The notes: generated from the sequence alone by a model not told the origin. Positions 1 to 33,889 are shown, numbered from the stretch's first letter. The stretch is DNA of 64,000 nt from an uncultured Chloroflexia bacterium (GCA_963810925.1 CAWEPF010000008.1:57994-121993); one strand, 5' to 3'. Translations and numbers: made by a program.

Positions 1-345
1 GCCGTAGCGGGCGATGACCTCGTTGCACGCGTCGAAGTAGCGGGTCAGGAGCTCGCGGGTCTCCTCGGGGTCGCGGTCCTCCGCAAGGGTCGTCGACCCC
101 ACCAGATCCGCGAACAGGACCGATACCAGCCGCCGCTCAGCCGTGGCCGGAGCGGGCTCGCCTGGGGCGGCAGGGGCCGTGGCGGGCGCTGATCCCACCA
201 GGTTCGTGCCGCACTCGACGCAGAACTTCGCCCCGGGCACGTTCTGCGTACCGCAGGTCGGGCAGCCCTCGACCAGCCGCGTCCCACATTCGGCGCAGAA
301 CTTCGTTCCAGGCGCCGCTGCCGTCCCGCAGCTGGGACAGTTCAC
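1..345 (-). CDS. Zinc-ribbon / class III cyclase / STAND ATPase protein, third tandem paralog (N-terminal 115 codons; continues past window start)
   Basis: Reverse translation from GTG at 345-343 gives VNCPSCGT..KFCAECGT..CPTCGT..KFCVECGT..ERRLVSVLFADLVGSTTLAEDRDPEETRELL. This is collinear with the N-termini of the two complete 1187-aa paralogs. It is absent from the ORF track because it runs off the window. The start overlaps the stop of 342..3905 as GTGA. Confidence 0.85.
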   Translation of the reverse strand, partial: MNCPSCGTAAAPGTKFCAECGTRLVEGCPTCGTQNVPGAKFCVECGTNLVGSAPATAPAAPGEPAPATAERRLVSVLFADLVGSTTLAEDRDPEETRELLTRYFDACNEVIARYG

Positions 346-3300
346 GCGGGCTGCTCCGCGTCCACCGCGACGGCGGCCCGAGCGCTGGACGGGGGCCGGT
401 CCTGGCCGCCGGCGGGCGGAGCCGGGGTGCCGGCGAACGCAGCCCGGAATCGAACTGGATAGTCGCCAGCCCCCAGGCCTGCGAAGAACGCATCAGCCTG
501 CTCCCCGGCCGCGCGCGCGTCAGGGAATCGCGCACCAAGGTACGCGTCGAACATGAGCGCAATGTTCGAGGCATCCAGGGGCCATTCCACGTCCATGAGC
601 AGGTCAACCGCGTCACGAAACCTCACACGGCCCTCGTCCCATCGCCCGTCGAAGACGGCATCGAGGGCGGCGGCGAAGTCGACGATTGCGGTGCTCTGGA
701 GGAAACCTGACGCCAGGTTGAACTCGTCCATGGACGCGAGCGCGTCCCGGTCACCCATGGCCGCAATGGCCAAGAGCGCCCGCTTCAGTCCGTCCGGATC
801 GTCGGGGAGTCGCCTCGCCGCGGAGCGGGCTGACTGCAGGGCCTCCGGGAATCGCTGGAAGGCAAGGTGCACTTCGGCATTGAAATCGTCCAGGACAGCC
901 AGCTGGGGCGCGCTCTCGAATTGCTCGCCCAACCGATTGGCCTCGGCGATCTCGACCGCCGCGCCCTCGGCATCGCCACGGTAGGCCAGCATCGCGGCGC
1001 GCATGCCGTGCATCCCCGCGGCCTGGGTCGTGTCCGGATTCAGCGATTCGAGCTCGGCGAGGTGATCGTCGCAGCGGGCCCAGTCCCCGGTTTGGAGCCG
1101 CATGATCGCGGACACCGTCAGGAGCTGCACCAGCCAGCCGTCGATCCCCAGACGGCGGCCCGTGTCGGTGCCGTCGTCCAGGATGCGCAAGGTCTCTGTG
1201 GCAGAGACGCTGTACATGAGACCGGACACGAGGTTGTTCCGCGCACGGAGCCCAGGCTCGGTGAGGCCCTCCGCGTCGGCAATGGCAATGGCCCCCCGGA
1301 GCAGAGCCTCGGACTCCGTGGTCCGCGTCCAGATGGCCGAGGCCTTGCTGGCCAGCGCCTCGACCACCACCCGTGGGTTGCGCGTGGTGCCCAGCGCGGC
1401 CATCGCCCGATCCGCCGTGGCGACGGCAGCGGGGCCCTGGTCGCTCAGCATGTAGGCCCGGGCCAGCTCGGCCAACGCGAACGCGGCTTCGGGGTTGTCC
1501 CGGGACGGATCGGCGGTCAATGGCACAAGCAGGTTGATGGCATCGGTCAGCTTCCCGTCGTGAGTGAACGCGCGCGCGAGCTCAGCTGACGCACGCAGCT
1601 CCCCGGCGGAGTCGCCGGTGGCCCGATACGCGTCTACCGCCTGCTGCCCGTGGTGGCGGGCCTGCGCCGCGTCCACCAGGGTGGCCGATCGGGCGGCCGC
1701 TTCGTGCAGCTGCGCGATCTCGGCCGGATCGGTCGTCACCGCCAGCGCGTCCTCGTAGAGGCGGACAGCGGCGCGGGCCGAGTACAGGGCGGCGGCACGG
1801 TCACCGGCGGCGCGAAGCGCGATCCGGGCCTGGTTCGCCAGCGCATCGGCCTCCGGACCGGGCGGCGTGGACCGATACGCCTCGAGGTAGTGGCTGGCCA
1901 GCACGCCGGCCAGCTCGTCGTCCCCCAGGGCCTCGAAGTACCGCGCCGCGGCGAGGTGCTTGGCCCGTCGGTCCTTCTTGGCCAGCGACTCGTACGCCAC
2001 CTCCTTGACGACCGACTGGAGGAAGGCGTACTGGCCGCGCTCCGGGGAGCGGGGATCGTCCTGGCGGACCAGCAGGTCGCGGGTCATGAGCCGCTCGAGA
2101 CGCGGCACGAGCGCTTCGGCGCTCTCCCCGGTGAGACCCTCGAGGGCGGTGATCGTGAAGCTCTGGCCCAGGACCGCGGCGTCGCTGATCAGGGCCCGGT
2201 CCTCGGGGCTGTTCGCGTCCAGGCGCGCCGCGATGAGGGCGTGCAGGGTCTCGGGCACCGCCAGCCGGTCGAGCTGGTCGGCACCTTCCACCAGGGCGAA
2301 GCCGTCGCCCGCCGGAACCAGCTGGCCGCGGTCGATGAGCATCCGGACCGTCTCGACGGCGTACAGGGGAATTCCGCCCGCGCGCTCGCAGACCGCGGTC
2401 ACGAGGCTCTCCGGCAGGCCCGCGGCCAGGCCGTGGAGCAGCTCGCGCATGACCGGGTCGGGCAGCGGCTCGAGCGTCACCGAGGTCGCGCTCCGCACGC
2501 CCGAGCCCCAGCCGGGCCGGCGCTCGTACAGCTCGGGCCGGGTCAGGGCCAGCACGAAGATCGGGGAGGTCTTGGCCCAGTCGAGCAGGTGCTCGATGAA
2601 ATCGAGCAGCCCGGCGTCGGCCCAGTGGAGATCGGTGAACACCAGGCACACCGGGTCCTGCTGGGCCATCCGCTCGAAGAAGGTGCGCCAGGCGGCGAAC
2701 AGCTCTTCGCGCTGTCCGGCGGGGAGCTCCTCCAGGCCCAGCAGCCCGGCGAGGCGAGGCTCGATCCAGCGGCGCTCATCGGCATCGGTCACGAACTCGT
2801 CCACGCTCGCCCGCAGGCGCTCGCGCGCGACGTCGGGGTCCTCGCCGTCGGCGATCCCGGCCCGGAAGCGGACCATCTCGCCCAGGGCCCAGAAGCTGAT
2901 GCCCTCGCCGTAGGCCGGGGAGCGGCCCTCGTGCCAGAACGTGCCACCGACGACCCCGTCGATGTACTTCTCGAACTCCCAGGCGAGGCGGCTCTTGCCG
3001 ATGCCGGCCTGACCGATGACCGTGACCAGCCGCGGCTTGCCCTCGCGGACGGTGGCCTCGAACAGGTCCTTCACGAGGCGCAGATCGTCGTCGCGGCCGA
3101 CGAACGGGGCCTCGAGCGCGGTGCTTCGTCCGGCACCGCCGCGGAGACCGGTGACGGCCATGGCCCGCCACGCCGAGACCGGGGCCGTCTTGCCCTTGAG
3201 CAGCTGCTCTCCGGCTTCCTCGTAGCGGATCGCTTCCCGGGTCGCGTGATAGGTCGGCTCCCCAACCAGCACCGATCCCGGCGGGGCCACCGACTGCAGC

Positions 3301-3905
3301 CGCGAGGCCGTGTTCACGAGGTCCCCGGCCACGATGCCCTGCCCGGTCGCGCCCACGGTGGCGGCCGCCTCCCCGGTCAGGACGCCGGCTCGCGCCTGGA
3401 GCGTGGCCCCTTCCAGGTGGGCAACCGCCTCGACCAGGTCCAGCCCGGCCCGCACGGCGCGTTCGGCATCGTCCTCGTGGGCGGTGGGCACGCCCCACAC
3501 CGCCATGACCGCGTCACCGATGAACTTCTCGATCGTCCCGCCATACCGATCGATGACCTCGCGCGCCGCGTCGAAGTAGCGGCTCAGCAGCTCGCGCGTC
3601 TCCTCCGGATCCTGGTCCTCGGCCAGGGTCGTCGACCCCACCAGGTCCGCGAACAGGACCGATACCAGTCGCCGCTCGGACGTTGAGCCGCCCGCCGGCT
3701 CGGTGCCGTCGGCCGTGGCGGCGGTCTCAACCGCGGCTCGCGCCGAGACCGCGCCCGTCAGAGTGGTCCCGCACTCGTTGCAGAACCTCGACCCCGGCGC
3801 ATTCTGGGTGCCACAGGTCGGACATCCCGACGCGAGCGCCGATCCACATTCGTTGCAGAACTTCGCTCCGACGGCGTTCTCGGTCCCGCAGGTCGGGCAG
3901 CTCAC
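342..3905 (-). CDS. Double zinc-ribbon / class III adenylate-guanylate cyclase / AAA (STAND-type) ATPase / TPR-like protein, paralog 2
   Basis: 1187-aa ORF. It has two CPxCG..FCxECG ribbons. The cyclase core has VLFADLVGST, EKFIGDAVMAVWG and GDLVNTASRL (both metal Asp, Lys, Asn/Arg). Walker A is GQAGIGKSRL and Walker B is LVFTDLHWAD. The C-terminal ~400 aa are Ala/Leu-rich and helical-repeat-like. The GTG start overlaps the upstream stop (GTGA). Confidence 0.9.
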   Translation of the reverse strand: MSCPTCGTENAVGAKFCNECGSALASGCPTCGTQNAPGSRFCNECGTTLTGAVSARAAVETAATADGTEPAGGSTSERRLVSVLFADLVGSTTLAEDQDPEETRELLSRYFDAAREVIDRYGGTIEKFIGDAVMAVWGVPTAHEDDAERAVRAGLDLVEAVAHLEGATLQARAGVLTGEAAATVGATGQGIVAGDLVNTASRLQSVAPPGSVLVGEPTYHATREAIRYEEAGEQLLKGKTAPVSAWRAMAVTGLRGGAGRSTALEAPFVGRDDDLRLVKDLFEATVREGKPRLVTVIGQAGIGKSRLAWEFEKYIDGVVGGTFWHEGRSPAYGEGISFWALGEMVRFRAGIADGEDPDVARERLRASVDEFVTDADERRWIEPRLAGLLGLEELPAGQREELFAAWRTFFERMAQQDPVCLVFTDLHWADAGLLDFIEHLLDWAKTSPIFVLALTRPELYERRPGWGSGVRSATSVTLEPLPDPVMRELLHGLAAGLPESLVTAVCERAGGIPLYAVETVRMLIDRGQLVPAGDGFALVEGADQLDRLAVPETLHALIAARLDANSPEDRALISDAAVLGQSFTITALEGLTGESAEALVPRLERLMTRDLLVRQDDPRSPERGQYAFLQSVVKEVAYESLAKKDRRAKHLAAARYFEALGDDELAGVLASHYLEAYRSTPPGPEADALANQARIALRAAGDRAAALYSARAAVRLYEDALAVTTDPAEIAQLHEAAARSATLVDAAQARHHGQQAVDAYRATGDSAGELRASAELARAFTHDGKLTDAINLLVPLTADPSRDNPEAAFALAELARAYMLSDQGPAAVATADRAMAALGTTRNPRVVVEALASKASAIWTRTTESEALLRGAIAIADAEGLTEPGLRARNNLVSGLMYSVSATETLRILDDGTDTGRRLGIDGWLVQLLTVSAIMRLQTGDWARCDDHLAELESLNPDTTQAAGMHGMRAAMLAYRGDAEGAAVEIAEANRLGEQFESAPQLAVLDDFNAEVHLAFQRFPEALQSARSAARRLPDDPDGLKRALLAIAAMGDRDALASMDEFNLASGFLQSTAIVDFAAALDAVFDGRWDEGRVRFRDAVDLLMDVEWPLDASNIALMFDAYLGARFPDARAAGEQADAFFAGLGAGDYPVRFRAAFAGTPAPPAGGQDRPPSSARAAVAVDAEQPA

Positions 3906-6900
3906 CGAGCCTCGACCTCGCGGACGGCGTCGCGCGCGGGAATCGCCGAGGTGAGGTGCGTCCCACCCGCCGCCGGCGCCGGCGTGGCTTGGAACGCCTG
4001 CCGGTAGCGGTCGACCACGCCGCCCGCGCCGCGCGATGTGAAGAACTCCGCGGCTTCTTCGCCGGCGCGTCGTGCTTCGTCGGAGGCGGCACCGAGGAAT
4101 GCGTCGAACTCGAGGCCGACGTAGGCGACAAACAGGTTTCCTTCAAGCGCCCGAAAATCGGCCATCGTCTCCGCATAGGCCTGCCCCGCCTCCTCCCATC
4201 GGCCGCCCAGCGCCGCCTCAGTGGCCGCCAGCTTTCGTCGGATGACCGTCGTCCATGAGACCTCCGGGAAGTCGACCAGGGGGTCGAGGGCTGCGTGCGT
4301 CGGGGCGTCGCCCATGCTTGCGGCGGCCAGCGACCGGAGCATCCCGAGCATTGCATCATTCCCCCCACCAGCGATGCCGACGAGGCAATCCATCGCGGCC
4401 TGGGGATTTCCCAGGATGAGGTGCGCCTGCGACTGCACCATTCGTACGCCCCCGAGCTGGGAGACCAGGACCTCGAGACCCGCCAGGGCGCGCGCCGACT
4501 CGTCGGCCGCCGCCTGGAAGCCATCGGCATCCCCGACCAGGGCCGCGAGCAGCCCGCGAATCATCGCCACGAATCCCGCCTGATCCGGAGCCAATGCGTT
4601 CTCGATCGCTTCAGCCACGTCGGATTCAACCCCATCCCAGTCCCCGACCATGAGACCTAGCTCGGATCGGCCAACCAGGAAGACGCCCAGCCAGCTCGCC
4701 ATACCGAACCGACGAGCCTGGTCGATCCCTTCGTTCACGACTTCGATCGCTTCGCGAAATGGTCGATCTTGGGTGAGGGTGAACGACAGGTTGTTCCGCG
4801 CACGCAGCGCCGACGACACGTGGCCCTCGCGGTCGGCGAGCAGGATGGCGCCTCGGTAGACGGCTTCCCCCTCGTCGGGCCGCGCGTACGCGAGCGCCGT
4901 CGCCTGCGTAACAAGCGCTTCGACCACGGTTTCAGTGTCTCGGTCACGCGCAGCGGCACGCAGAGCACGCTCCGCCATCTCGATCGCCTCGTCATTCCGG
5001 TCGGTCAGCATGTAGAGGCGGGCCAACTCGGCAAACACCCGCGCGGCCTCCGGCTCATCCTCGGCCAACGTGGCCGCCACCGGCTCCAGGGTCGCGATGC
5101 CGTCCGATGTGCCGTAGTCGGTCTGGATCCGTGCCGCCAGCGCCTGCGCGCGGTTCGCGGTGGCACGGTCCCCAGCGCCCCGCGCCAACTCGGCTGCCGC
5201 CAGAGCATGCTCGACCGCTTCCGGCAAGGCCAACCACGACCCTGACCGAGCCGCGGTCTGGTGGAGCGCCGCCTGTTCGAGGTGATCGGCCGTGATGGCG
5301 ATGGCCTCCTCGGCGTGGCGGTAGGCGGCGGCGTACGAGTGCAGCGACTCCGCGCGCTCAGCCGCGGCCCGAAGCGCGATCCGGGCCTGGATGGCCACCG
5401 CGTCAGCTTCCGGCCCCGGATTGGTGGCCCGCAGCGCCTCCAGATAATGGCTGGCGAGCACGCCGGGGATCTCCTCATCGCCGAGGGCCTCGAAGTACCG
5501 AGCGGCTGCCAGGTGCTTGGTCCGACGGTCCGCTTTGGCAATCGTCTCGTAGGCGACCTCGCGGACGACCGCCTGGACGAACCGATGCTGGCCGCGCTCG
5601 GGCGATCGCGGGTCGTCGTCGCGGATGAGCAGCTCGCGCCGGACGAGCCGGTCGAGTCCTTGCAAGAGGGCGGACTCGTCCTGCCCGGTGATCCCCGAGA
5701 GGGCGTCCATGGTGAAGCTCTGGCCGAGCACGGCCGCATCCGCCAGAACGGCACGATCCTCCGCAGAGTTGGCGTCGATGCGCGCCGCGACCAGCGCGTG
5801 CAGCGTCTCAGGGACCGCCAGCCGGTCGATCGGACCGGCGAGCACGAATCCTTCGTCGGTGGACTGCAGCTGGCCACGATCGAGCAGCATCCGAACCGTC
5901 TCGACCGCGTACAGGGGCACGCCCTCGGCGCGCTGCACGACCGCGTCGACCGCGGCGTCGGGCATCCCGGGCACCAGGCCGTGAAGCAGCTCTCGCATCG
6001 GTCCCTCGGGCAGAGGCTCGAGGACCACCGTCGTCGCATTGCGCACACCGCTACTCCAGTTCGGGTGGCGCTCGAGCAGGTCGGGCCGGGTCATCGCGAC
6101 GACGTAGATCGGATGGTTCTTCGACCAGGCGAGCACATGTTCGATGAACTCGAGCAGCCCCGCGTCAGCCCAATGGAGGTCCTTGAAGACGAGGATGACC
6201 GGATCGTGGTCGGCGATCCGCTCGAAAAACGTCCGCCAGGCGGCAAACAGGTCCTCGCGCTGGGTCGCCGGCAACTCCTCCAGGCCGAGCAGGCCGGCAA
6301 CCCGCGGCTCGACCCACCGGCGCTCTTCCGGATCGGTCAGCCATTCGTCCAGGCAGGCGCTCAACTTCGTTCGGGCGGTCGGCCCGTCGTCGGTCTCGGC
6401 GATGCCGGCTCGCTCGCGGACCATCTCGGCCAGCGCCCAGTAGCTGATGCCTTCGCCGTAGGACGGTGAGCGACCGGCGTGCCAGTAGAAATCCTGGTTC
6501 ACGCCGTCGATGTACTTCTCGAACTCCCAGCCCAGCCGGCTCTTCCCGATGCCTGCCTGGCCGATGATCGTGACCAGCCGCGGCTTCGACTCGCGGACGG
6601 TTGCGTGGAAGAGATCCTTGACCAGCCGCAGCTCCTCGTCGCGGCCCACGAACGGCGGCTCGAGCGCGGACCGACGGCGGGCGCCGCCGCGCATGCCGAG
6701 GACCTGCACCGCTCGCCACGCCGGCACGGGGCTGGACTTTCCCTTCAGCACCTGGTTGCCGACATCCTCGAAGGCGATGGCGTCGCGAGTCGCGCGATAC
6801 GTGGACTCGCCGACGAGCACGGCCCCGGCGGGCGCCATGCCCTGCAGGCGGCTCGCGGTGTTCACCAGGTCGCCGGCGACGATGCCCTGCCCGACCGCCC

Positions 6901-7465
6901 CGATCGAGGCGGCCGCTTCGCCGGTGAGCACCGCCACGCGCATCTGGAGCGGCTGGTCGGCATCCAGGATGCGGCCGACCTCGGCGATGAGCTCGAGGGC
7001 CGCACGCACCGCCCGCTCGGCATCGTCTTCGAAGGCTGTCGGCACGCCCCAGACCGCCATCACGGCATCGCCGATGAACTTCTCCACGGTGCCGCCGTAC
7101 CGACCGATGATCTCGGAGGCGGTTTCGAAGTACCGGCTCAGGAGGTTCCTGGTCTCCTCCGGATCGCGATCCTCGGCCAGGGTCGTGGATCCAACGAGAT
7201 CACCAAAGAGCACCGTCACCAGGCGACGTTCGGTACCGATCGTGATCGGCGTGGCGTGGCCGGGCTCGGCGACCAGCGCCGGTGGCGCATCGGCCAGGGC
7301 CGTGCCGCACTCCCCGCAGAACTTCGTGCCGGGCGCGTTCGGCGTTCCGCAGGCCGGGCACGCGGCGCTCAGGCGGGTGCCGCATTCGCCGCAGAACTTT
7401 CGGCCGGGCTCATTCGCGGTTCCGCACGCGGGGCAGTTCACGGGGTCACCATCATCGGCCGCCAA
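3902..7465 (-). CDS. Double zinc-ribbon / class III adenylate-guanylate cyclase / AAA (STAND-type) ATPase / TPR-like protein, paralog 1
   Basis: 1187-aa ORF with the same architecture and length as 342..3905. Motifs seen: CPACGT..FCGECGT x2, VLFGDLVGST, KFIGDAVMAVWG, GDLVNTASRL, GQAGIGKSRL, LVFKDLHWAD. Confidence 0.9.
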   Translation of the reverse strand: MAADDGDPVNCPACGTANEPGRKFCGECGTRLSAACPACGTPNAPGTKFCGECGTALADAPPALVAEPGHATPITIGTERRLVTVLFGDLVGSTTLAEDRDPEETRNLLSRYFETASEIIGRYGGTVEKFIGDAVMAVWGVPTAFEDDAERAVRAALELIAEVGRILDADQPLQMRVAVLTGEAAASIGAVGQGIVAGDLVNTASRLQGMAPAGAVLVGESTYRATRDAIAFEDVGNQVLKGKSSPVPAWRAVQVLGMRGGARRRSALEPPFVGRDEELRLVKDLFHATVRESKPRLVTIIGQAGIGKSRLGWEFEKYIDGVNQDFYWHAGRSPSYGEGISYWALAEMVRERAGIAETDDGPTARTKLSACLDEWLTDPEERRWVEPRVAGLLGLEELPATQREDLFAAWRTFFERIADHDPVILVFKDLHWADAGLLEFIEHVLAWSKNHPIYVVAMTRPDLLERHPNWSSGVRNATTVVLEPLPEGPMRELLHGLVPGMPDAAVDAVVQRAEGVPLYAVETVRMLLDRGQLQSTDEGFVLAGPIDRLAVPETLHALVAARIDANSAEDRAVLADAAVLGQSFTMDALSGITGQDESALLQGLDRLVRRELLIRDDDPRSPERGQHRFVQAVVREVAYETIAKADRRTKHLAAARYFEALGDEEIPGVLASHYLEALRATNPGPEADAVAIQARIALRAAAERAESLHSYAAAYRHAEEAIAITADHLEQAALHQTAARSGSWLALPEAVEHALAAAELARGAGDRATANRAQALAARIQTDYGTSDGIATLEPVAATLAEDEPEAARVFAELARLYMLTDRNDEAIEMAERALRAAARDRDTETVVEALVTQATALAYARPDEGEAVYRGAILLADREGHVSSALRARNNLSFTLTQDRPFREAIEVVNEGIDQARRFGMASWLGVFLVGRSELGLMVGDWDGVESDVAEAIENALAPDQAGFVAMIRGLLAALVGDADGFQAAADESARALAGLEVLVSQLGGVRMVQSQAHLILGNPQAAMDCLVGIAGGGNDAMLGMLRSLAAASMGDAPTHAALDPLVDFPEVSWTTVIRRKLAATEAALGGRWEEAGQAYAETMADFRALEGNLFVAYVGLEFDAFLGAASDEARRAGEEAAEFFTSRGAGGVVDRYRQAFQATPAPAAGGTHLTSAIPARDAVREVEAR

Positions 7466-7514
7466 CTGTACCGTCTGCCGCGTTCGATTGGCAGCCCCGC
7501 GCTAGGCTGGATTC

Positions 7515-8015
7515 GTGCGTGGAGACCCGTGGTACCGATTGGTCGGCGCAGTGGGCACCGCCCGCTGGATGCGCCGCCTCCATGCCCCGCTCTACCGCCG
7601 CTTCGGAGGGGCCAGCCTGCTCGGCCGTTCGCTGGGGAACCTGACCATCGTGCTGGCCACCACCGGGGCGCGCACCGGCCAGCCGCGCGAGACCGCGATC
7701 TGGGCCTATCCAGACGGCGACGCGCTCGTCCTGGTGGCCTCCAACGGAGGCAGCCGCCGCCTGCCCGGCTGGTGTGCGAACCTGCGCGCCCACCCGGAGG
7801 CGGAGGTCGTGGTTCGCGGGGAGCGACGGCCGGTCCGCGCCCGGGAGCCCGTAGGCGTGGAGTACGACCGGCTGTGGCTCCTGGTCAGCCGCTCATACCC
7901 GGGCTACAACCGGTACGTGGAGTGGGCCCAGCGCCACATCCCGCTGGTGATCCTCGAGCCGCTCGATGGGCGGCCGCTCGACGGGCGGCCGCTGAGCGGG
8001 GCGCGACCCGCCTAG
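7515..8015 (+). CDS. Deazaflavin (F420)-dependent nitroreductase family protein (Ddn/DUF385-like)
   Basis: 166 aa. The stretch LATTGARTGQPRETAIWAYPDGDALVLVASNGGSRRLPGWCANLRAHPEAEV matches the characteristic core of the DUF385/Ddn family. Confidence 0.8.
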   Translation: MRGDPWYRLVGAVGTARWMRRLHAPLYRRFGGASLLGRSLGNLTIVLATTGARTGQPRETAIWAYPDGDALVLVASNGGSRRLPGWCANLRAHPEAEVVVRGERRPVRAREPVGVEYDRLWLLVSRSYPGYNRYVEWAQRHIPLVILEPLDGRPLDGRPLSGARPA

Positions 8016-8914
8016 AGGCCCTCGAACAGGCTCGTTTCCGAGCGGCCGGGGGCCGGCGCCTCGCCGTCCTCCTCGACCAGGACGAAGCGCTCCGAGCCGT
8101 ACGCGAGCACGCCCAGGTCATCGGGCAGCTCGATGGCCCAGCCGAAGTCCTGGCGCTGGGTCCGATGGCACTCCATGGCGGTGCGCTTGGTGCGAGCCCA
8201 GCCCGACACGTCAACGACCGTCGTGACGGCCGGCTCGGTGGTGCCCGGCCGCTCCTCGGGCTCGTCCGCGTCAAGCGTCTCGTCGTAGCCCCATGGGAGG
8301 GACATCCCCCGCTCGCGCATGGCCCGCATGAGCTCCAGCCACCGCCCGGACCCGAAGGCGGTTTCGTACCGGCGGCGGACCCGGTGCGGCGGGCCGGCAT
8401 CCGGATACCGATCGGAATCCGCCGAGGCAGGGACGGCCGAGACGGCGATCCGGTGGGCCTGGATGTGATCGGGGTGGCCGTACCCGCCGTTCGAGTCGTA
8501 ATGAACGACCACCGCGGGGCGCGCCTCGCGGATGAGGCGGACCAGCGGCTCGGCCGCCGTCGCGAGATCGGCCTGCCAGAAGGATTCAGGATGCTCGTTG
8601 CCCGGGGTGCCCATCATCCCGCTGTCGCGGTGCCCGAGCCGGTGCAGGTGCAGGTTGTCCGCGTGTCCGGTCCCCGTGCTCAGGGCCGCGAGCGCGCAGA
8701 TCAGCTCCGCGTCGCGGATCTCGCCCAGCCTCCCCTGGGCCTCGGCCGGGTCGAGGTCGGGGTCGTGGATCTCGCCCTCTTCCCCGCCGGTGCAGACCAC
8801 GAGGTCCACCCGGCGTCCCTCCGCGAGAGATTGAGCGATGACCCCACCGGTCGAGAACACCTCGTCGTCCGGGTGGGCGTGGACCAGAAGCAAGCCCCCT
8901 GTGGTCTCGCTCAT
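8012..8914 (-). CDS. PIG-L/LmbE family N-acetylglucosaminyl deacetylase (MshB/Mca-like)
   Basis: LLLVHAHPDDEVFSTGG motif near the N-terminus. The track ORF (to 9121) has an Arg/Pro-rich extension. The ATG at 8914 forms an ATGA overlap with the patatin gene stop, so the 300-aa form was chosen. Confidence 0.8.
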   Translation of the reverse strand: MSETTGGLLLVHAHPDDEVFSTGGVIAQSLAEGRRVDLVVCTGGEEGEIHDPDLDPAEAQGRLGEIRDAELICALAALSTGTGHADNLHLHRLGHRDSGMMGTPGNEHPESFWQADLATAAEPLVRLIREARPAVVVHYDSNGGYGHPDHIQAHRIAVSAVPASADSDRYPDAGPPHRVRRRYETAFGSGRWLELMRAMRERGMSLPWGYDETLDADEPEERPGTTEPAVTTVVDVSGWARTKRTAMECHRTQRQDFGWAIELPDDLGVLAYGSERFVLVEEDGEAPAPGRSETSLFEGL

Positions 8915-9741
8915 GCCGGCCGCAGCGCGCGCATAGCGGCGTTGTACCCGCGCGTGCGCGGCTTCTCGATGGCGCCGAACTGCACCCAGTTCACGTCCCA
9001 CAGCATGGGCCTGATCATCAGGTCCGGCACGGCCTGGGTGACGGGCCGGGTGACGGCCTCCGCCAGCAGGGCGGTGTAGCGGCGCGCATCCAGGCGCCCG
9101 TTGGGGCTGGCGCCCAGCCACTGGGCGGCCATTCGCAGCGTCCAGGCAATCGGTCCCTTCGAGAGGATCGGGGGAATGGCACCGATCAGCTGCACGCCCA
9201 GCACCGGCTCATCGGACCACGCGCGCGCCAGGCTGACCGGGACCGGCTCCCAGATGCCCGCGTCGGCGAGCACGGCGTCGCCCTGCGGGACGGGCGGAAA
9301 CACGACCGAGATGGCGCAGCTGCGGATGAGGGCGTCGACCACCGGACCGCTCGTGATCGCGCGGTGCTCGCCGCTCACCAGGTCGTAGCTGGCCGCCGCA
9401 TACGGCATGGGCAGGTCCTCGATCATCGGGCTGCCGACCTCGGCCACGACGGTGGCCATCATCGCGCGGTGGTCGACCACCGCCAGGCGGGCGGGAAAGC
9501 GGGCCAGGCGCCAGGGATTGACGGCAACCGCCATCGCGGCCATGCGCTCCGGCGACAGGCCGGCCGCCAGGCCGGCGCCCAGCACGGATCCAATGGACGT
9601 GCCCACCACCCGGTTGGGCCGCAGGCCCAGCTCGTCCAGCGCCTGGATGACGCCCAAGTGCGCGTATCCCCGTGCCCCGCCGCCACCCAGGGCGAGGGTG
9701 AAACCGTCCCGCAAGCGCGCCGCGGGATCGGTCCGGCTCAT
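8911..9741 (-). CDS. Patatin-like phospholipase
   Basis: LGGGGARGYAHLGV (GGxRG oxyanion hole) and VGTSIGS (GxSxG) motifs. The start was set at MSRTDP (ATG 9741), which gives an ATGA overlap with the upstream gene. Confidence 0.8.
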   Translation of the reverse strand: MSRTDPAARLRDGFTLALGGGGARGYAHLGVIQALDELGLRPNRVVGTSIGSVLGAGLAAGLSPERMAAMAVAVNPWRLARFPARLAVVDHRAMMATVVAEVGSPMIEDLPMPYAAASYDLVSGEHRAITSGPVVDALIRSCAISVVFPPVPQGDAVLADAGIWEPVPVSLARAWSDEPVLGVQLIGAIPPILSKGPIAWTLRMAAQWLGASPNGRLDARRYTALLAEAVTRPVTQAVPDLMIRPMLWDVNWVQFGAIEKPRTRGYNAAMRALRPA

Positions 9742-10097
9742 CCCGAATGCTCGCCGCAGGCACACATCGTGCGCAGCTTGGCGTACGTGAACAGGCCGGT
9801 GTCGTGGCCATCGGCCCAGATGGGGGCCAGCGCGTATCGGCCGATCCACTTCACCCGGTCCATGGTCACCGCGGCCGGGGGGAACATCGTCTCCAGGGTC
9901 ACCACCCCGGGCATGTTGCCCTCGCCGGCGCACAGCGCGCAGGGACACGCTCGGCGCAACTCGGTCCAGCCCCACACCCCCAGGTGCCCGTCATCCCACC
10001 GAATGCGCATGAGCCGATCCGTCTCGTCCAGCTCGACCGCAATGGGGTTGACGATGTCGCCCATCACCTCAGGGTCTCCACCGTTCCTCGACGCCAC
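9738..10097 (-). CDS. DUF971 domain protein (gamma-butyrobetaine hydroxylase-like N-terminal domain)
   Basis: 119 aa with RIRWDDGH..WTELRRACPCALC..W.DGHDTGLF, typical of DUF971. An alternative ATG lies at 10064, preceded by GAGGTG. Confidence 0.65.
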   Translation of the reverse strand: MASRNGGDPEVMGDIVNPIAVELDETDRLMRIRWDDGHLGVWGWTELRRACPCALCAGEGNMPGVVTLETMFPPAAVTMDRVKWIGRYALAPIWADGHDTGLFTYAKLRTMCACGEHSG

Positions 10098-14338: not shown

Positions 14339-14342
14339 GCGG

Positions 14343-21580: not shown

Positions 21581-22737
21581 GTGACCATCCAGCCGCCGAG
21601 CGACGATCAGCACCTGGCCGAGGCCCGGGCCATCCTGGCCCGCCATCCGGTCCTGGACGGGCACAACGACCTGCCCTGGGAGATCCGCAAGTACACGGCT
21701 GCGCCGGGCGACCTCGCGGCCTACGACCTCCGCACCCGGGCCCCGGCCAAGGGACAGACCGATCTCCCCCGGCTGCGCGCAGGCGGCGTGGGCGGCCAGT
21801 TCTGGAGCGTGTACGTGCCAGGCGAGGGGACGGCCGGGCGGGCGGTCCTCCAGCTGGAGCAGCTGGACCTGGCGCGCCGGATGATCGACCGATACCCAGA
21901 CGACCTCGCGTACTGCACCACGGCTGACCAGGTGGACGCGGCCATGGAAGCCGGGAAGATCGCCTCGCTGCTCGGGATGGAAGGCGGGCACGTCCTGGAG
22001 GGTTCGCTCGGCGCCCTGCGCGCGTTCTCCAACCTCGGGGCGCGTTACCTGACCCTGACCCACAACCAGTCCAACGACCTGGCCGACTCCGCGACCGGCG
22101 AGGTGCTGCACGACGGCCTGTCGGACCTGGGGCGCGACGGCGGTGGCCGAGATGAACCGGCTGGGCATGCTGGTCGACCTGTCGCACACCTCTCCCGCCA
22201 CGATGTCCGACGCGCTCGAGGCCACTCACGCCCCGGTCATCTTCAGCCATTCGTCGGCGCGCGCCCTGTGCGACGTGGCCCGCAACGTGCCCGACGACAT
22301 CCTGCGCCGCATGGCCGCCAACGGCGGGGTGGTGATGGTCACGTTCGTGGCCGGCTTCGTGAGCCCCGACGCGGCCGTCATCCTCATCCCGGCCATCGCG
22401 GAGTTCAGCCGGCGCGCGGCCGGCATCACCGATGTCGCGCGTGCGGGAGGCCATGGCCGAGGAGATCATCGACTCGCTCGAGGTCCCGGCGCCGCCGCTG
22501 AGCGTGGTGGCCGACCACGTCGAGCACGTGGCGGCGGTGGCCGGGCATGACCACGTCGGGCTGGGCGGCGACTACGACGGGAATACGTTCTGGCCGGTGG
22601 GGATGGAGGACGTGTCGAGCTATCCCAGCCTGTTCGCCGAGCTGGTGCGCCGCGGATGGAACGAGGAGCACCTGGCCAAGCTGGCCAACGGGAACATCCG
22701 GCGCGTCCTGCGCGAGGCGGAGTCGGTCGCGGACTGA
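21581..22737 (+). pseudogene. Membrane dipeptidase (peptidase M19), two frame disruptions (~22128-22142 and ~22400-22440)
   Basis: Three consecutive frames carry the protein. [24 protein letters not shown] is in ORF 21581. [25 protein letters not shown] is in ORF 22143. GLGGDYDG is in ORF 22432. Together they form one collinear M19 protein. Confidence 0.85.
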
Positions 22738-26033: not shown

Positions 26034-26868
26034 TCAGGGGGTGGGCGACCCCGAGGGTGAAGCCGAAGGAGTGGGGGTCGGCGGGGGCGGTGCGGTGGTC
26101 TGGACCAGGAACGATTGTCCATCGGCACCGGCCGCCATGTAGCCCCGGATCGGCGAGCCGCCGGCCTGGAGGACGACCGTTTCGACCTGGTACCAGACCA
26201 GGCCGTCGACGACCTGCGCGGGAGACAGGATCCGGACGACGTCACCGGTGAACAGCGCGCCCACCACCGTGGAATCGGTCGCCGGCGTCACCCGGACCCG
26301 GACGCCATCCGCGACGACCTCCGCGTAGTCGCCGGCCGACAGGTCGGTGGGGGCCGTCGCGCTCGGAGTGGCGCTCGGCGCATGGGTGAGCTCGATCGTT
26401 ACCGTGACCTCCACCTCGCAGACCGAGCGACGGCGGCGAAGCGGGCGCATCGGTGGGCTGCGGACCGTCGTAACCCTGGTAACCGTCCACGTCATCGGTC
26501 CAGCCTCGATGCCCGGTGGCGACGGGATACGTGACCCCGGGGGCTGCCTGCATCTCCGCCGAGAAGTCACCAGACGCGGTGGAGGTGTAGTCCAGCACCG
26601 TGTCCCCGTAGAAGTCGATCGTCACCGCCGAGCTGGGCGGGAATCCCGAACCCGCGAAGAACAGGATGTCGTCGGACGCTCCGGTGTCGGGATCGACCCG
26701 AATGGTGGTCGGGGTCACGCTGACCTGGCACTCGGCCGCCGAGGACGGGGACGGGGTCGGTGAGGAGGACGGCGACTGGCGGGAGGAGAGGCCGAACCCG
26801 ATCGCGAATCCCACGATCAGCACGACGGCACCCCCGAACCCGATGAAGGTCCATTGGCGCCGGGTCAT
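26034..26868 (-). pseudogene. Membrane-anchored protein with C-terminal SH3b-like domain, frame disruption at ~26420-26460
   Basis: ORF 26242..26868 gives the TM anchor and N-terminal domain. ORF 26034..26570 gives GDYAEVVADGVRVRVTPATDSTVVGALFTGDVVRIL..WYQVE (SH3-like) and a Pro/Thr tail. Confidence 0.6.
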
Positions 26869-27908
26869 CGGGGTGGCGGCACCAGCATCCCGAACCGATC
26901 GGGGTCAACCGCGGCGGCCACCTGGATGGCGTTCAGCGCGGCCCCCTTGCGCAGGTTGTCGCTGGCCACGAACAGGGCGAAGCCGCGCGGTCGCTCGGGG
27001 ATGGCCCGCAACCGGCCCACCAGGACCGGGTCACGACCTTCGACGTCGAGCGGCATGGGGTGGCGCTCGGATCCGTCGGCCGGGCGGTACTCGACCCCCG
27101 GTGCGCGGCGCAGGGCGTCCTCGATCGCCGCCACGCTGGTGTCGCGTTCGGTTCGCAGGTGGAGCGCAAGCGAGTGGCCAGTGTGCACGGGGACGCGGAC
27201 CGTCGTCGCGGCCACGTCCAGGTTTGGCAGGCCCAGGATCTTGCGCATCTCGGCGCGGACCTTGCGCTCCTCCCCGCTCCAGCCGTCCTCGCCCAGGACG
27301 TCGATCTGGGGCACGACCGAATCGGCCACGCGTCCGTGGAACGGGCTGCCGGCGGCAGCCTCGCGATCATCGGTCCCGCGCTCGGCCACGAAGGCCTCCA
27401 CACCCGCTCTGCCGGCCCCGCTGACCGCCTGGTACGAGGCCACGTCCACGCTTTCCAAACCGGCGAGGTCGCGGATGGGCGCGAGCGCCATCACCGCCGC
27501 CGCAGTGGTGCAGTTGGGGTTCGCCACCACGTGGCCCGCGTATCCGTCCAGGTCGGCGGCATTGACCTCGGGCACGACCAGCGGGACGGCCGGGTCCAGC
27601 CGGTACGCGCTCGAGTTGTCGACCACGAGCGGCACCGCGCGCGCCGGCCCCTCGACCAGATCGCGCGAGACGGCGCCATCGGTGGCCAGGAACAGGACGT
27701 CCAGCTCGGCAGCCGCGGACTCGTCCAGGATGCGGACCGGGATCTCGGTCGATCCAAACAGGACCGATCCAGTCTCGGTTCCGAAGGCCCGGACCTGTCC
27801 GGCCGGCAGGCCGGCATCGGTCAGGATGGACAGGAAGACCGATCCAACCAGCCCGCGGGCACCCGCCACGCCCACTGTCGGCCAGGCTGTGGCGTCCCGC
27901 TCAGGCAT
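26865..27908 (-). CDS. asd: Aspartate-semialdehyde dehydrogenase
   Basis: The 348-aa portion of ORF 26865..28841 starting at MPERD carries VGVAGARGLVG, VANPNCTTAA, SYQAVSGAG and ASDNLRKGAALNA. The start overlaps the hom stop. Confidence 0.9.
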   Translation of the reverse strand: MPERDATAWPTVGVAGARGLVGSVFLSILTDAGLPAGQVRAFGTETGSVLFGSTEIPVRILDESAAAELDVLFLATDGAVSRDLVEGPARAVPLVVDNSSAYRLDPAVPLVVPEVNAADLDGYAGHVVANPNCTTAAAVMALAPIRDLAGLESVDVASYQAVSGAGRAGVEAFVAERGTDDREAAAGSPFHGRVADSVVPQIDVLGEDGWSGEERKVRAEMRKILGLPNLDVAATTVRVPVHTGHSLALHLRTERDTSVAAIEDALRRAPGVEYRPADGSERHPMPLDVEGRDPVLVGRLRAIPERPRGFALFVASDNLRKGAALNAIQVAAAVDPDRFGMLVPPPR

Positions 27909-28841
27909 TCGCCGGCGCTCCCACGATCGGACGCTCTCCGCGAACCAGCCGCGCGAGATCGGCATACACCGCGCCGGCCGTGGCGCGGCCACCGGCACCG
28001 GGACCCTGGATACGCACGGTGGACAGTCCTTCCACCTCGACCTCCAGCGCGCACTCGACGCCGCGGAGCGCCGCCAGCGGTGAGCCCGCGGGCAGCGTGA
28101 CCGGCGTGACGCGAAGTGTTTCGGGCGTGGCCTCGGCCACCAGGCGCACGGCGGCGCCGGGCTCCACGGTCCAGCCCCACGATGCCCTGGGTATCCACCT
28201 CGCCCTCGCTCCGCCATCGGCCCCAGGCGACCCAGGCCAGGATGGCCAGCTTCTGCGCCGCGTCGTGCCCGTTCACGTCCAGGGTCGGATCGGCCTCGGC
28301 GAAGCCCGCCGCCTGGGCATCGGCCAGGGCGTCGCCGTACGTCCGGCCCTCGCTCATGGCTGACAGGATGAAGGTGGTCGTTGCGTTGAGCAGCCCGCGC
28401 AGGCGCCGAATGGCGCCCGGTCGCGGCCAGGTGCTCGGTCACCTCCAGCATGGGCGTTCCCCCACCAACCGAGGCGGACGCCAGGAGCGCGGCGCCGGTG
28501 TCGCGAGCCAGGTCCGCCAGCTCCCCGCCGTACGCGGCGAGGAGCGCCTTGTTGGCCGTCACGTAGGGCAGGCCCGCGCCCAGTGCCGCCATGGCCCACT
28601 CCCGTGGCAGGTCCACGCCACCGGCGAGCTCCACGACGGCGTCCACCACGCCCAGGTCCCCGGGCTCGTCCCCGACCGGGACACCCGCGGGCAATGAGGC
28701 GGATCGCTCCCGCGCCGGGTCACGCACGGCGACCCAGGCCAGGCGCACGGGGAGCGGCCCGGTGGTCACCAGCCCGCCCAGGGCGGAGCCCACCGTTCCC
28801 CAGCCCACCAGTCCGATCCGGAGCGATTCCATGGACCTCAC
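27901..28841 (-). pseudogene. hom: Homoserine dehydrogenase, two frame disruptions (~28406-28418 and ~28165-28178)
   Basis: IGLVGWGTVG..VTANKALLA..GGTPML is in the frame of ORF 26865..28841. IRRLRGLLNATTTFILSAMSEGRTYGDALADAQAAGFAEADPTLDVNGHDAAQKLAILA is in the frame of ORF 27821..28357. The C-terminal ACT-like part is in ORF 27901..28167. Confidence 0.85.
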
Positions 28842-29212: not shown

Positions 29213-29992
29213 CTAGGGAAACAGGTCCCGCTCGCGGGCCATGACCAGGGGTCGGGCGCCCAGGTCCTCTCCCCCCGGCGCCACGAACGGAAAGCCCCGG
29301 ATCACGACCACCGGACGTCCGGTGGCCTTCCCGGCCGCCAGGTCAGCGGCACTCGCCAGCTCGTCGGCCACGGCGACCACTGTCGCGTGCAGCTCCCGCC
29401 CGTCCGCGTCCGCGGTCCCGCGCAGGTCGGCCAGGACGTCGATCCCCGCGCTACCCAGCGCCACGTCGGTGATCCCGTCGCGCCACGGCCGTCCGAACGA
29501 GTCGGACACGATGACCGCCGGCCGCGCTCCCGTCAGCTCGCCCAGTCGAGCACGAATGGCCCGGGCCGACCCATCGGGATCCTTGGGCAGGAGCGTGGCC
29601 CGCTCCCCGTCCCCCGGGCCGGTGTTCGAGAGGTCCACCCCGGCGTTGGCGCACACGAACCCGTGCCGGGTCCGACTGATGATCAGGCCACCGTCCGCCA
29701 TGCGAAGCACCTCGGCGCTCTCCCGCAGCACGAGCTCCACCTGGCGCGGGTCCTTCCCCCACTGCGCGCCCCACTGGCGGGCTGTCTCGCCCGGCTCCAC
29801 GGCGGCCAGGTCCACCACCCGGCCCTCCGCCTTGCTGACGACCTTCTGCGTCACGACCACCACGTCCGCATCGGTCAGACCGATGGCGGCGGCCTCCGCC
29901 GCCGCCGCGATCATCGCCCCCAGGTCGTCCCCGGGCTGCACCTCGCCCATCCCCTCCAGCGCGACGAGCTGGATGCCGCTGCCCCCGTTCAC
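29213..29992 (-). CDS. cofE: Coenzyme F420-0:L-glutamate ligase
   Basis: PGDDLGAMI..VVVVTQKVVSKAEGR..SRTRHGFVCANAGVD..VSDSFGRPWR is diagnostic for CofE/FbiB-N. GTG 29992 gives a GTGA overlap with the cofC stop. The track ORF extends to ATG 30016. Confidence 0.85.
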   Translation of the reverse strand: MNGGSGIQLVALEGMGEVQPGDDLGAMIAAAAEAAAIGLTDADVVVVTQKVVSKAEGRVVDLAAVEPGETARQWGAQWGKDPRQVELVLRESAEVLRMADGGLIISRTRHGFVCANAGVDLSNTGPGDGERATLLPKDPDGSARAIRARLGELTGARPAVIVSDSFGRPWRDGITDVALGSAGIDVLADLRGTADADGRELHATVVAVADELASAADLAAGKATGRPVVVIRGFPFVAPGGEDLGARPLVMARERDLFP

Positions 29993-30586
29993 GCCGCGTG
30001 GCCCCGTGCCAGCCACGCGGCCAGGTCAGCCGGCGTGTCGAGGTCGAACGCCAGGCCCGCGCGGCGCACGACGGTGACCGCGGCGCCCGCCCGCTCCCCC
30101 GCCCCCCGGTGGGCCGCGAAGCTGTCGGGGCCGAACGCAAAGTTGATCGCATCCGGTGGGGACAGGGCCAACCCGTTCGTCCCACGACCGGCCGCGTCGG
30201 GAGCAATCGCGATGATCGGCGCGCCGCGTGCGGCGCTCAGGAGCGCCGTGACGTCCGAGGCAGCCAGGTCCGGAAGGTCGCCATGGAGCACGGCAACCAG
30301 CGTGACGTCGGCTTCGATCGCCTCGTCACGGGCCTGCCGAAGGCCGCTGTTCAAGCCCATGCCGTGCTGGACGGAGAGGGCGGCACCCGTTTCCGCGACG
30401 ACGGCTCGACAGCGCGGGGTCGGGCGAGATGACGACCACCTCGTGGCCCGTGGACACGGCGGTGGCCAGGACGTGGCGCAGGAGCCGCTCGGCCAGGGCC
30501 GCGCGCTCGTCCGGCTCCAGGACGGCGGCCAGGCGCGTCTTCGCATGCTCGAGCCCGCGGTGCGGGACGATGATCCGGGTCGTCAC
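29989..30586 (-). pseudogene. cofC: 2-phospho-L-lactate / phosphoenolpyruvate guanylyltransferase (CofC/FbiD), frame disruption at ~30400-30412
   Basis: The N-terminus is in ORF 30326..30586 (IIVPHRGLEHAKTRL). The remainder is in ORF 29989..30546 (GMGLNSGL..HGDLPDL..GTNGL). The two are collinear after removing one base. Confidence 0.8.
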
Positions 30587-30595
30587 CCCCGCAGC

Positions 30596-31526
30596 CTAGC
30601 CCGAGGCGGCGTCGAGCAGGGCGCGGGCCAGCGCCGCGCGATCGTCATCGGTCTGCATCACGGTCGGCAGCACGACCGCCCGGAAGCCTTCGGCGGTGAC
30701 GGCATCGGTCAGTTCGGCATCGGACTCGTCGAGCACCCACTCCTGGACCAGTCCGGCGTACAGGCGGGCGACCCCGACCGCGCTCACCTCGTGACCGAGC
30801 GAGCTCATCATCCGATCGGTAGGCCCCTTGAGCGCCTTCCCAGCCACGATGGGGCTGACCCCCACTCCGTCGTCCGGGCGCGGCGGCCAGCGCCTCGCGC
30901 ATCCCCGGCATGGCCAGGATGGGCTCGATGCTGACCAGGGGGTTGGATGGACCGATGACCACGAGGTCGGCCCGCGAGACGGCGTCCAGCACCTCGTCGG
31001 TGGGCGGGGCGGATGCGGCGCCCTCGAAGCTGATGCCCCGGACCTCGTCCCGCTGGCCTCGCTCCACGAAGTAGCGCTGGAACTCGAGGTCTCCGTCGTC
31101 GGTCAGGATCCGGGTCCGGAGCCGTCCATCGGTCGCGGGCAGGATCCGACTGGGCACCCCCAGGGCCGCGGCCATGTCGGCCGTGACCCGGGTCAGGCTG
31201 GCGCCCCGGCGCAGCTGCGCAGTGCGGCGGACGAGCGTGCCCAGGTCCGCGTCACCGAGCCAGAACCACGTTTCCTCGCCGTACCGCTCGAGCATGGTCA
31301 GGGCGCGATCGGTGTCCCCGGCCACGCCCCACCCGCGGTCGCGGTCGACCAGGCCGGCGAGGGTGTACAGGACGCTGTCCAGGTCCGGGCTGACGTGAAG
31401 ACCGAACAGCTCCAGGTCGTCGCCAACGTTGACGATCACGTCCAGCGAGCCGCCCGGCACGACCTGCTGGAATCCGTGCGCCAGCTTGGCGCCCCCCGTG
31501 CCGCCCGACAGGAGCGCGACGCGCAT
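30596..31526 (-). pseudogene. cofD: 2-phospho-L-lactate transferase (CofD/FbiA), frame disruption at ~30866-30880
   Basis: MRVALLSGGTGGAKL..IGPSNPLVSIEPIL is in ORF 30645..31625, starting at ATG 31526. The C-terminus VGVSPIVAGKALKGP.. is in ORF 30596..30865. Confidence 0.85.
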
Positions 31527-31680
31527 GGCCGGAGAGTACCGCGCCCTTGGGTGGGCGTCGCCCCGGAGACGCGTGGAGCCCGCAGTCTGGCCGCAGTCTG
31601 GCCAGAGTGGAGCCGCAGGAACCACCTCCTAGGGTCGCCTTCGTGCGGATTCGCACGGATCCCCGACAAGGAGACAGACC

Positions 31681-33198: not shown

Positions 33199-33405
33199 CT
33201 AGCCGACGCGCCTATCTCGCCGCAGCAAGAAGAGGTAGACGCCAGCACCGACGACAGCGGCAAACACCCAGGACAGGAAGTTCGCGGAGCCGAAGACCCA
33301 CTGCGCCATGAGCGTGATCGCGAACCACGCGATAACGGCCGAACCGAGTGCGATCCCAAGGCGGCGAACGACCGTGATCATGTCGCCACCGGTGCTGATG
33401 GTCAC
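33199..33405 (-). CDS. Small two-TM membrane protein (hypothetical)
   Basis: 68 aa with two hydrophobic helices. The GTG start overlaps the stop of the upstream PPOX gene (GTGA). Confidence 0.45.
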   Translation of the reverse strand: MTISTGGDMITVVRRLGIALGSAVIAWFAITLMAQWVFGSANFLSWVFAAVVGAGVYLFLLRRDRRVG

Positions 33406-33818: not shown

Positions 33819-33889
33819 GGGAGTCGCATGGTAAACCGAAGGCGGTCCCACGCCGTGAAGCCCTGGCGCGCGCCCCCTGGCAGGGAGGC

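Follow-up and report, generated by a model that had tools for sequence, protein, structure and literature searches.

Fusions of a nucleotidyl cyclase with a signal transduction ATPase with numerous domains (STAND) have been known from genome annotation for about two decades, one example being Rv0386 of Mycobacterium tuberculosis. To our knowledge, the ligands of such fusions and the way in which the ATPase gates the cyclase have never been worked out. Rv0386, Rv1358 and Rv2488c of M. tuberculosis, assigned to the LAL family, combine a cyclase, an ATPase, tetratricopeptide repeats (TPRs) and a LuxR domain (10.1101/2024.03.06.583649). For PH0952 and MalT, an ADP-bound resting monomer, autoinhibition by the arm and the sensor, and inducer-driven multimerization have been described (PMC6468293, PMC4381067). 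Here we analyze a stretch of 64 kb from a soil Chloroflexota genome with a GC content of ~70% (GCA_963810925.1 CAWEPF010000008.1:57994-121993; hereafter the window), at the start of which three paralogous genes, A, B and C, form a tandem array. Their products are a variant of the known cyclase-LAL/STAND kind that has no helix-turn-helix (HTH) domain and carries an additional zinc ribbon. What is new here is that translationally coupled tandem arrays of such genes recur, and that copy number and sensor vary through recombination among near-identical strains.

An earlier note on this DNA had reported three consecutive minus-strand genes of one architecture, and the open reading frames (ORFs) are as it described. 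Gene B (342..3905, minus strand) is a full copy of 1187 aa with a GTG start, and its ortholog P0001, which is 86% identical, is also 1187 aa long. Gene A (3902..7441, minus strand), the other full copy, had been given exactly the same length, which is an artifact of longest-ORF calling. Its longest ORF (3902..7465, minus strand) runs for 1187 codons from a TTG at 7465, but because the orthologs in L006 and L009, the species representatives nearest to the window, begin at VNCPACG, the start of A is probably GTG 7441, which gives a protein of 1179 aa. Gene C is present as an N-terminal fragment (1..345, minus strand), the first 115 codons of which are open and end at the window edge. The visible part comprises the zinc ribbons, a linker and the beginning of the cyclase, and is nearly identical to the start of the second copy in a close relative, L002 (13561 onward; the whole copy spans 13561-17107, with frame breaks). 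Third-position GC in the A, B and C reading frames is 0.84-0.89, which marks all three as real genes, and no further copy of the array gene occurs elsewhere in the window.

Both junctions are 4-nt GTGA overlaps of stop and start codons, as noticed at the outset, and read ...GGTGAG... and ...CGTGAA.... The A stop (TGA) and the B start (GTG) share 3902..3905 (minus strand), with a GAGG motif 4 nt upstream of the GTG, and the B stop and the C start share 342..345 (minus strand), with a GGAG motif 8 nt upstream of the GTG. A promoter and terminator scan found no terminator-like site at either the A/B or the B/C junction, although the scan as a whole was uninformative (0 promoters; 4 intragenic terminator-like sites vs 1.8 ± 1.6 expected). 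Because the overlaps are 4 nt long and the junctions contain no terminator-like site, the co-transcription suggested earlier is plausible, and the array is probably transcribed and translated as one unit. The sequence beyond the window was read through the near-identical relatives L001, L002 and L003. The genes that follow the C ortholog in L002 are those that follow B in L001, and for this reason C is probably the last copy of a three-member array, which probably does not extend past the window start as had been suspected.

A and B share an architecture of a double zinc ribbon, a class III cyclase, an AAA_16 STAND ATPase and a TPR-like superhelix, all encoded on the minus strand. In B, Pfam matches and an AlphaFold2 (AF2) model place the double zinc ribbon at aa 1-49 (3759..3905), followed by a disordered Ala/Pro-rich linker (aa 52-77), the cyclase at aa 78-250 (3156..3674), the STAND nucleotide-binding oligomerization domain (NOD) at aa 265-620 (2046..3113; Walker A GQAGIGKS, Walker B LVFTDLHWAD) and a TPR-like sensor superhelix of ~28 helices at aa 622-1156 (438..2042). 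The modules of A are a double zinc ribbon (7295..7441; 2 x CPxCG...FCxECG; Pfam DZR, E 4e-12), a class III nucleotidyl cyclase (6704..7228; Guanylate_cyc, E 2e-20) with catalytic motifs identical to those of B, a STAND NOD with an AAA_16 P-loop and a helical/winged-helix part (5603..6661, coordinates obtained by alignment to B; AAA_16, E 4e-21), and the diverged half, a TPR-like sensor superhelix (3995..5602; weak TPR_7/TPR_8 matches, 20-50% identity to B). In the Pfam searches, DZR/Zn_ribbon matched A, B and also the C fragment. Guanylate_cyc (PF00211) matched the two full copies at 78.0 and 73.4 bits (cutoff 21.9; E 1e-20 to 1e-22) and AAA_16 at 79.3 and 76.6 bits (cutoff 32.6; E 1e-21 to 1e-22), while the TPR matches were weak and sub-threshold. 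No LuxR/GerE or other HTH family matched A or B at E ≤ 0.01, in agreement with the earlier statement that a C-terminal LuxR HTH is absent. The zinc ribbons are absent from about a quarter of close homologs and conserved where present; since about a quarter of the top 150 matches begin after them, this module is facultative.

When the STAND and TPR part was searched against PDB sequences, the only matches were to designed TPR-like repeats (E 1e-7), with nothing for the NOD, and we therefore turned to structure prediction and Foldseek. The AF2 model of B, built on 106 homologs, has a mean predicted local distance difference test score (pLDDT) of 83. It shows the zinc ribbons, the disordered linker, an α/β cyclase, a P-loop NOD and the ~28 TPR-like helices, which reach aa 1156 and are followed by a disordered tail. 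In the superhelix, pLDDT is mostly >90, and the last three helices are conserved again between the copies. The best PDB match of the model is PH0952 (6mfv, a MalT-type STAND with a TPR sensor; E 5e-10), which supports the original STAND reading. Avs3 is second (E 1.8e-9), and generic TPR scaffolds come after it. PDB homologs of the cyclase domain include Cya2, CyaB and Rv1625c (E 1e-21 to 1e-16).

Residue conservation was read from an alignment of 106 homologs. All eight zinc-ribbon cysteines are kept in at least 104 of them. Key residues of the B cyclase are D87, K127, D131, I191, N198, R202 and K237/K239. The metal-binding residues D87 and D131, the substrate residue K127 and the transition-state residues N198 and R202 are invariant (106/106), and to that extent the claim that all catalytic residues are present holds. 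It does not extend to the second base-specifying position (191 in B), which is Met in 65, Ile in 28 and Leu in 13 of the 106 sequences and thus always hydrophobic. The equivalent residue is Asp in Rv1625c and Thr in CyaB; of the canonical adenine-specifying pair (Lys plus Asp/Thr), the array proteins have K127, but its partner is Ile, Met or Leu. In the ATPase, G298, G303 and K304 of Walker A (GQAGIGKS) are invariant in the 106 sequences. Walker B follows the pattern VFxDLxWAD, in which D425 is kept in 105/106 and the preceding position is Lys, Thr, Ser or Trp instead of Asp.

Overall, A and B are 56% identical, with 19 gaps in 1173 aligned columns. In sliding 50-residue windows, identity is 0.58-0.84 (about 70%) over aa 70-700, drops to 0.38-0.50 from aa 700 to 890 and to 0.20-0.34 from aa 890 to 1110, and recovers to 0.54 in the last window, which contains the last helices. 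The earlier estimate of ~70% identity over the first ~800 aa was right in value, but the break lies nearer aa 700, and the last ~380 aa, described as barely alignable, are indeed diverged but align almost without gaps. The ratio of nonsynonymous to synonymous substitution rates (dN/dS, Nei-Gojobori) between A and B rises from 0.17-0.30 across the cyclase, NOD and helical parts to 0.56-0.57 in the TPR half. With dS at 0.7-1.5 throughout, the two halves are similarly old and differ in constraint, not age. The C ortholog of L002 shows the same gradient against A and B (about 71%, then 61-66%, then 34-35%). Divergence is therefore non-uniform along the proteins, and the identity and dN/dS profiles agree on the proposed combination of a conserved output and switch half with a fast-evolving TPR half. 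Between orthologs, dN/dS is 0.03-0.15 in the N-terminal half (N-half) vs 0.15-0.37 in the TPR half. Judged by these ratios, the TPR sensor half is under purifying selection but three to five times less constrained; its dN/dS is below 1 in all comparisons (0.15-0.57). Strong purifying selection acts on the cyclase domain, where the ratio is 0.03-0.17.

Concerted evolution or gene conversion was considered as a cause of the conserved N-half and rejected, because orthologs are much closer there than paralogs. A is 0.95 and 0.90 identical to the first copies of L006 and L009 in the N-half and 0.71 in the C-terminal half (C-half), and B and copy 1 of L002 are 0.95 and 0.77 identical in the two halves. 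The N-half identity of A and B (0.71) is far below that of A and its L006/L009 orthologs. Each paralog lineage has thus been retained across species. We also observed that the TPR half has about twice the ortholog dS (L002, L006 and L009) of the cyclase and NOD half (0.6-1.0 vs 0.27-0.5), for which older allelic lineages, recombination in the sensor half and an estimation artifact are possible explanations.

Among the near-identical relatives, the array differs in both copy number and sensor. L001, which is 99-100% identical to the window over most 500-nt windows, has an A-B array that is precisely without C, and its sequence after B continues as does the L002 sequence after C. In L002, the C ortholog follows a copy whose zinc ribbons are of the A type and whose body, from about aa 65-75 on, is that of B. 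Unequal crossing-over between A and B would be expected to yield such a chimera. In L003, B (93%) is preceded by an A-like copy with 76-80% amino acid identity in the N-half and 34-53% in the C-half. The alleles of B itself also differ. Between B of the window and B of L001 there are 71 differences, most of them three bases apart and at synonymous positions, clustered at 1540..2085; divergence from L001 reaches ~9% over positions 1612-2110 of the window, with flanks that are 99-100% identical. Assembly noise was rejected as the source of these differences, since they are mostly synonymous, spaced three bases apart and clustered in one tract. In this comparison, 1540..2085 in B looks like a homologous-recombination tract between strains.

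In L003, the copy at the A position (5987..9956) has fragmented gene calls, and reading it through would take at least five changes of frame. Either it is a pseudogene, or the long-read assembly contains homopolymer errors; similar single frame breaks occur in L001 and L002.

The combination of zinc ribbon, cyclase, AAA_16 and TPRs is not a new design, although the earlier note set it apart from the mycobacterial fusions, but belongs to a very large, experimentally unstudied family that JGI and RefSeq already annotate. A word-indexed search matched at least 8,000 protein clusters; the top 120 matches are essentially all ~1180 aa long with the same Pfam string, and JGI names the proteins 'class 3 adenylate cyclase/TPR repeat protein'. 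In an exhaustive HMMER search of 1.84 billion representatives at 50% identity, the conserved N-half matched 19,266 at E ≤ 1e-30, and the best 150 matches have E ≤ 1e-174, most of them aligned over essentially the whole N-half. The closest genomes belong to uncultured Candidatus Limnocylindria (Chloroflexota), followed by Thermoleophilia, Gaiellales and other Actinomycetota, and the window itself comes from a Limnocylindria-type bacterium. No homolog was found in a phage collection at E ≤ 1e-10, and our literature searches turned up no published description or function of the exact four-module architecture.

Tandem arrays and sensor variability recur in these relatives. With tblastn we detected arrays of two to four or more same-strand copies, ~3.55 kb apart, in 21/80 loci from both phyla, and a single copy within ±10 kb in 59/80. 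Seven adjacent full-length pairs outside the window have identities of 0.65-0.84 in the N-half and 0.32-0.40 in the C-half, and four of the seven have a 4-nt overlap. Across 3,570 pairs among 85 full-length proteins, C-half identity tracks N-half identity. Family pairs with an N-half identity of 0.7-0.8 have a median C-half identity of 0.43, and A/B (0.71/0.34) lies at the low end but inside the range. On these comparisons, conservation of the N-half with divergence of the C-half characterizes the family as a whole, as it does STAND proteins in general, and is not a peculiarity of the array. Since it holds family-wide, the gradient alone is no proof of array-specific diversifying selection. 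In summary, the initial observation is confirmed with minor corrections, its interpretation is reasonable and partly supported, and its novelty was overstated. Two loci of the set, L031 (17291..21064, minus strand) and L051 (5564..9406, minus strand), contain a second, distant family member on the opposite strand within 10 kb (27-36% N-half identity), indicating that non-tandem clustering of divergent cyclase-STAND genes also occurs.

The 53 other predicted genes of the window encode, by Pfam, mostly ordinary metabolism and transport. Their matches include an F420-dependent quinone reductase, PIG-L, EamA, nitrilase-type hydrolases, MscS and acetyl-CoA synthetase, as well as MFS and ABC transporters, CofC/CofD/CofE, luciferase-like oxidoreductases, PadR, PntAB and polyphosphate kinase. 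This housekeeping neighborhood is conserved in synteny among relatives. None of the 53 ORFs has a domain for binding cyclic nucleoside monophosphates (cNMPs), nor a mobile-element or defense domain, in keeping with the earlier remark that no cNMP-binding effector is visible nearby, which holds for the whole 64-kb window. A CRP query (phmmer) found nothing in the window and one CRP-like ORF across all 83 loci. Clustering of ~950 neighbor ORFs revealed no recurrent partner gene, the commonest neighbor cluster occurring in 11/83 loci. PADLOC gave only generic PycC matches, on the cyclase domain (E 1e-16), and no match to Avs models at E ≤ 0.01.

On balance, we think it probable that A, B and C are ligand-gated, oligomerization-activated cyclases of the MalT/LAL-type STAND class that feed a shared second messenger. 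With the PH0952/MalT scheme as template, each protein at rest would be an ADP-bound monomer in which the arm and the TPR superhelix keep the NOD closed. Binding of a ligand, either a small molecule or a protein or peptide, to the TPR sensor would be followed by exchange of ADP for ATP and by multimerization. Class III cyclases need to dimerize, and their active sites form across the interface. Because these sites are interfacial, multimerization would join the N-terminal cyclase domains and switch on cNMP synthesis by induced proximity; interfacial cyclase active sites are also described in a recent preprint (10.64898/2026.08.12.744502). The product would most likely be cAMP, with some uncertainty because one base-contacting residue is non-canonical, and would be read by receptors encoded elsewhere in the genome. 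With the same output and switch but different sensor surfaces, the paralogs could bring several inputs onto one second messenger. The array itself would have arisen, and would still be remodeled, through unequal homologous recombination between the conserved N-halves.

Several points weigh against this reading. Enzymatic activity, product, autoinhibition, oligomerization-driven activation and distinct ligands are all inferred. With position 191 non-canonical, the cyclase could make a product other than cAMP, and with a single conserved acidic residue in Walker B the ATPase cycle may be atypical. The catalytic loops of the modeled cyclase (aa 128-142 and 172-193, ~3327..3524) have pLDDT <50 and include the invariant D131 and the base-pocket segment 186-198, the remainder of the protein being confidently modeled; such loops would fit an active site formed only in the dimer but are not evidence for one. 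At 0.16/0.27, the TM-scores to PH0952 are low, as one would expect of a flexible model with several domains, and the likeness is established as local fold similarity only. No cNMP receptor was identified in a search that covered the 64-kb window. Finally, strain-level presence and absence of copies together with sensor replacement would also be expected of an immune locus.

That possibility was considered in two forms. According to one, the array is an anti-phage or conflict locus of Avs-like STANDs, in which the TPR part binds a phage protein and a cNMP alarm activates an unlinked effector. The Avs design likewise joins a STAND to a TPR sensor, Avs3 ranks second among the structural matches, the PycC models of PADLOC match the cyclase domain, copy loss, a chimera and a replaced sensor occur among near-identical strains, and the preprint cited above predicts an immune clade made up of cyclases fused to NACHT or AP-ATPase STANDs (10.64898/2026.08.12.744502). 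We nevertheless regard this reading, the main rival, as unlikely. No effector or cNMP-binding gene is present in the window or conserved beside the 83 loci, the PADLOC match is generic to the cyclase domain with no Avs model reaching the threshold given above, and the neighbors are housekeeping genes in conserved synteny. Positional orthologs persist across species, the STAND is of the AAA_16/MalT type, not NACHT or AP-ATPase, and the cyclase evolves slowly, whereas the immune clades of the preprint are fast-evolving (10.64898/2026.08.12.744502). The other form, which we hold to be quite unlikely, treats the arrays as a polymorphic receptor locus resembling that of nucleotide-binding leucine-rich repeat (NLR) proteins. 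Here the TPR halves would be diversified by unequal crossing-over and allelic recombination, the ligands would be biotic (phage, kin or competitor molecules), the effectors would be unlinked, and the cNMP would come from an unusual Lys/Met (Ile, Leu) base pocket and possibly not be cAMP. If true, it would extend the preprint's idea of cyclase-STAND immunity to the far larger clade of MalT/AAA_16-TPR proteins, which dominates soil Chloroflexota and Thermoleophilia.

Two further readings concern the relation between the copies. It is conceivable that the C-halves have no distinct specificities, that the TPR solenoid is simply under low constraint, and that the copies are redundant dosage duplicates in a neutral process of birth and death. 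The ratio of N-half to C-half identity, which is the same across all 3,570 family pairs, a sensor-half dN/dS that never exceeds 1, and the gain and loss of copies among close strains would all be compatible with this. But the TPR halves of orthologs are under purifying selection, with intact frames and a confidently predicted structure, and the A and B lineages are old, as their dS indicates, and retained across species, where redundant duplicates would be unlikely to persist; we regard redundancy as quite unlikely. Alternatively, the co-translated paralogs could build one hetero-oligomer, like paired or helper NLRs, with mixed NOD rings and cyclase dimers that integrate several ligands. In this and other arrays, the 4-nt overlaps imply coupled and roughly equimolar synthesis; the NOD and cyclase halves, being ~70% identical, may have compatible interfaces; and arrays recur in two phyla. 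Obligate heterodimeric cyclases such as mammalian C1/C2, however, have complementary degenerate halves, whereas every copy here has the full catalytic residue set; moreover, most loci (59/80) are single-copy, and natural strains lose A or C and keep the rest. An obligatory mixed assembly is thus the least probable of the readings that we weighed.

The array establishes no new principle, and sequence analysis does not demonstrate its function. Its value is as a natural experiment, in which three paralogs have one output and three different sensors, and in which strains exist with a lost copy, a chimera or a replaced sensor. Such close-strain variants make domain-swap and ligand-fishing work straightforward, and the locus lets one ask whether induced proximity of cyclases is a general STAND output. 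With its great size in uncultured soil lineages (Limnocylindria and Thermoleophilia), the family may be a major route into cNMP signaling there.

Some neighboring genes are recorded here for completeness. An F420 biosynthesis cluster (F420 ligase CofE, CofC and CofD) lies at 29213..31625 (minus strand), and probable F420-dependent enzymes are found at 7515..8015, 32237..33172, 33402..33851 and 42639..43655. They are an F420H2 quinone reductase adjoining the array, two luciferase-like monooxygenases and a PNPOx-like protein. An ORF of 658 aa (26865..28841, minus strand) contains a homoserine-dehydrogenase-type NAD-binding domain (aa 13-119) and a complete aspartate-semialdehyde dehydrogenase (aa 322-632), and represents either a genuine fusion of two successive enzymes of a pathway or an artifact of ORF calling that joined two genes. 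Another, of 101 aa (22432..22737, plus strand), matches the Peptidase_M19 profile over its final 77 positions only (243-319 of 319) and is either a truncated remnant or an ORF with a mis-called start.

Proteins with a closely similar layout are also found in cultured rhizobia. WP_064994086.1 of Mesorhizobium sp. WSM1497 (pWSM1497, 1099 aa) has DZR, Guanylate_cyc, AAA_16 and TPR in the same order and no HTH, and an unannotated ORF of Sinorhizobium meliloti 1021 pSymA (~249.7-252.8 kb, 1058 aa) has Guanylate_cyc, AAA_16 and TPR without zinc ribbons. Both are 33-38% identical to the array N-half over 83-92% of its length but differ from the array in belonging to Alphaproteobacteria, in lying on megaplasmids and in not forming head-to-tail arrays of the same architecture. 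Among the literature searched, no function has been published for the rhizobial cyclase-AAA_16-TPR proteins. The CyaF1-F7 group of S. meliloti is named without its architecture in PMC13001267, and the pSymA homolog is therefore equated here with no CyaF. On pWSM1497 (L085, 3000..10156), the homolog is part of a small cyclase-rich neighborhood, with two further cyclase-domain genes and genes for a redoxin and a Rab-family GTPase.

With systems of described function the resemblance is partial. Avs3 shares with the array proteins a STAND and a TPR sensor, a link of structural similarity only; the array proteins have no nuclease, protease or TIR effector domain and no match to an Avs model, and they do not lie in a defense island. 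PycC of the Pycsar/Pucsar systems is, like the array cyclase, of class III type, but the array has no adjacent effector with a cyclic nucleotide-binding domain. Membership in Pycsar was rejected for want of an effector, the PycC matches reflecting generic class III homology. The closest NCBIfam model is TIGR03903, a kinase/cyclase fusion of thiazole/oxazole-modified microcin (TOMM) systems, which aligns over ~670-740 residues (E 1e-60 to 2e-62) but scores 206-211 bits against a cutoff of 705.75, the match beginning at profile position 249-282, after the kinase region. Unlike proteins of that model, those of the array have neither a kinase domain nor a TOMM gene context, and the alignment shows that the cyclase-ATPase-helical unit is a recurrent cassette. 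By their described architecture, proteins of the Rv0386 type likewise begin with a class III cyclase and continue with a P-loop ATPase of the MalT/LAL type and a TPR region, but they end in a LuxR-type HTH, which the array proteins lack, having an N-terminal double zinc ribbon instead. MalT of Escherichia coli and PH0952 of Pyrococcus horikoshii (6mfv) share with the array the layout of NOD, arm and TPR/SUPR sensor; the output of MalT is a DNA-binding domain, whereas that of the array proteins is an N-terminal enzyme.

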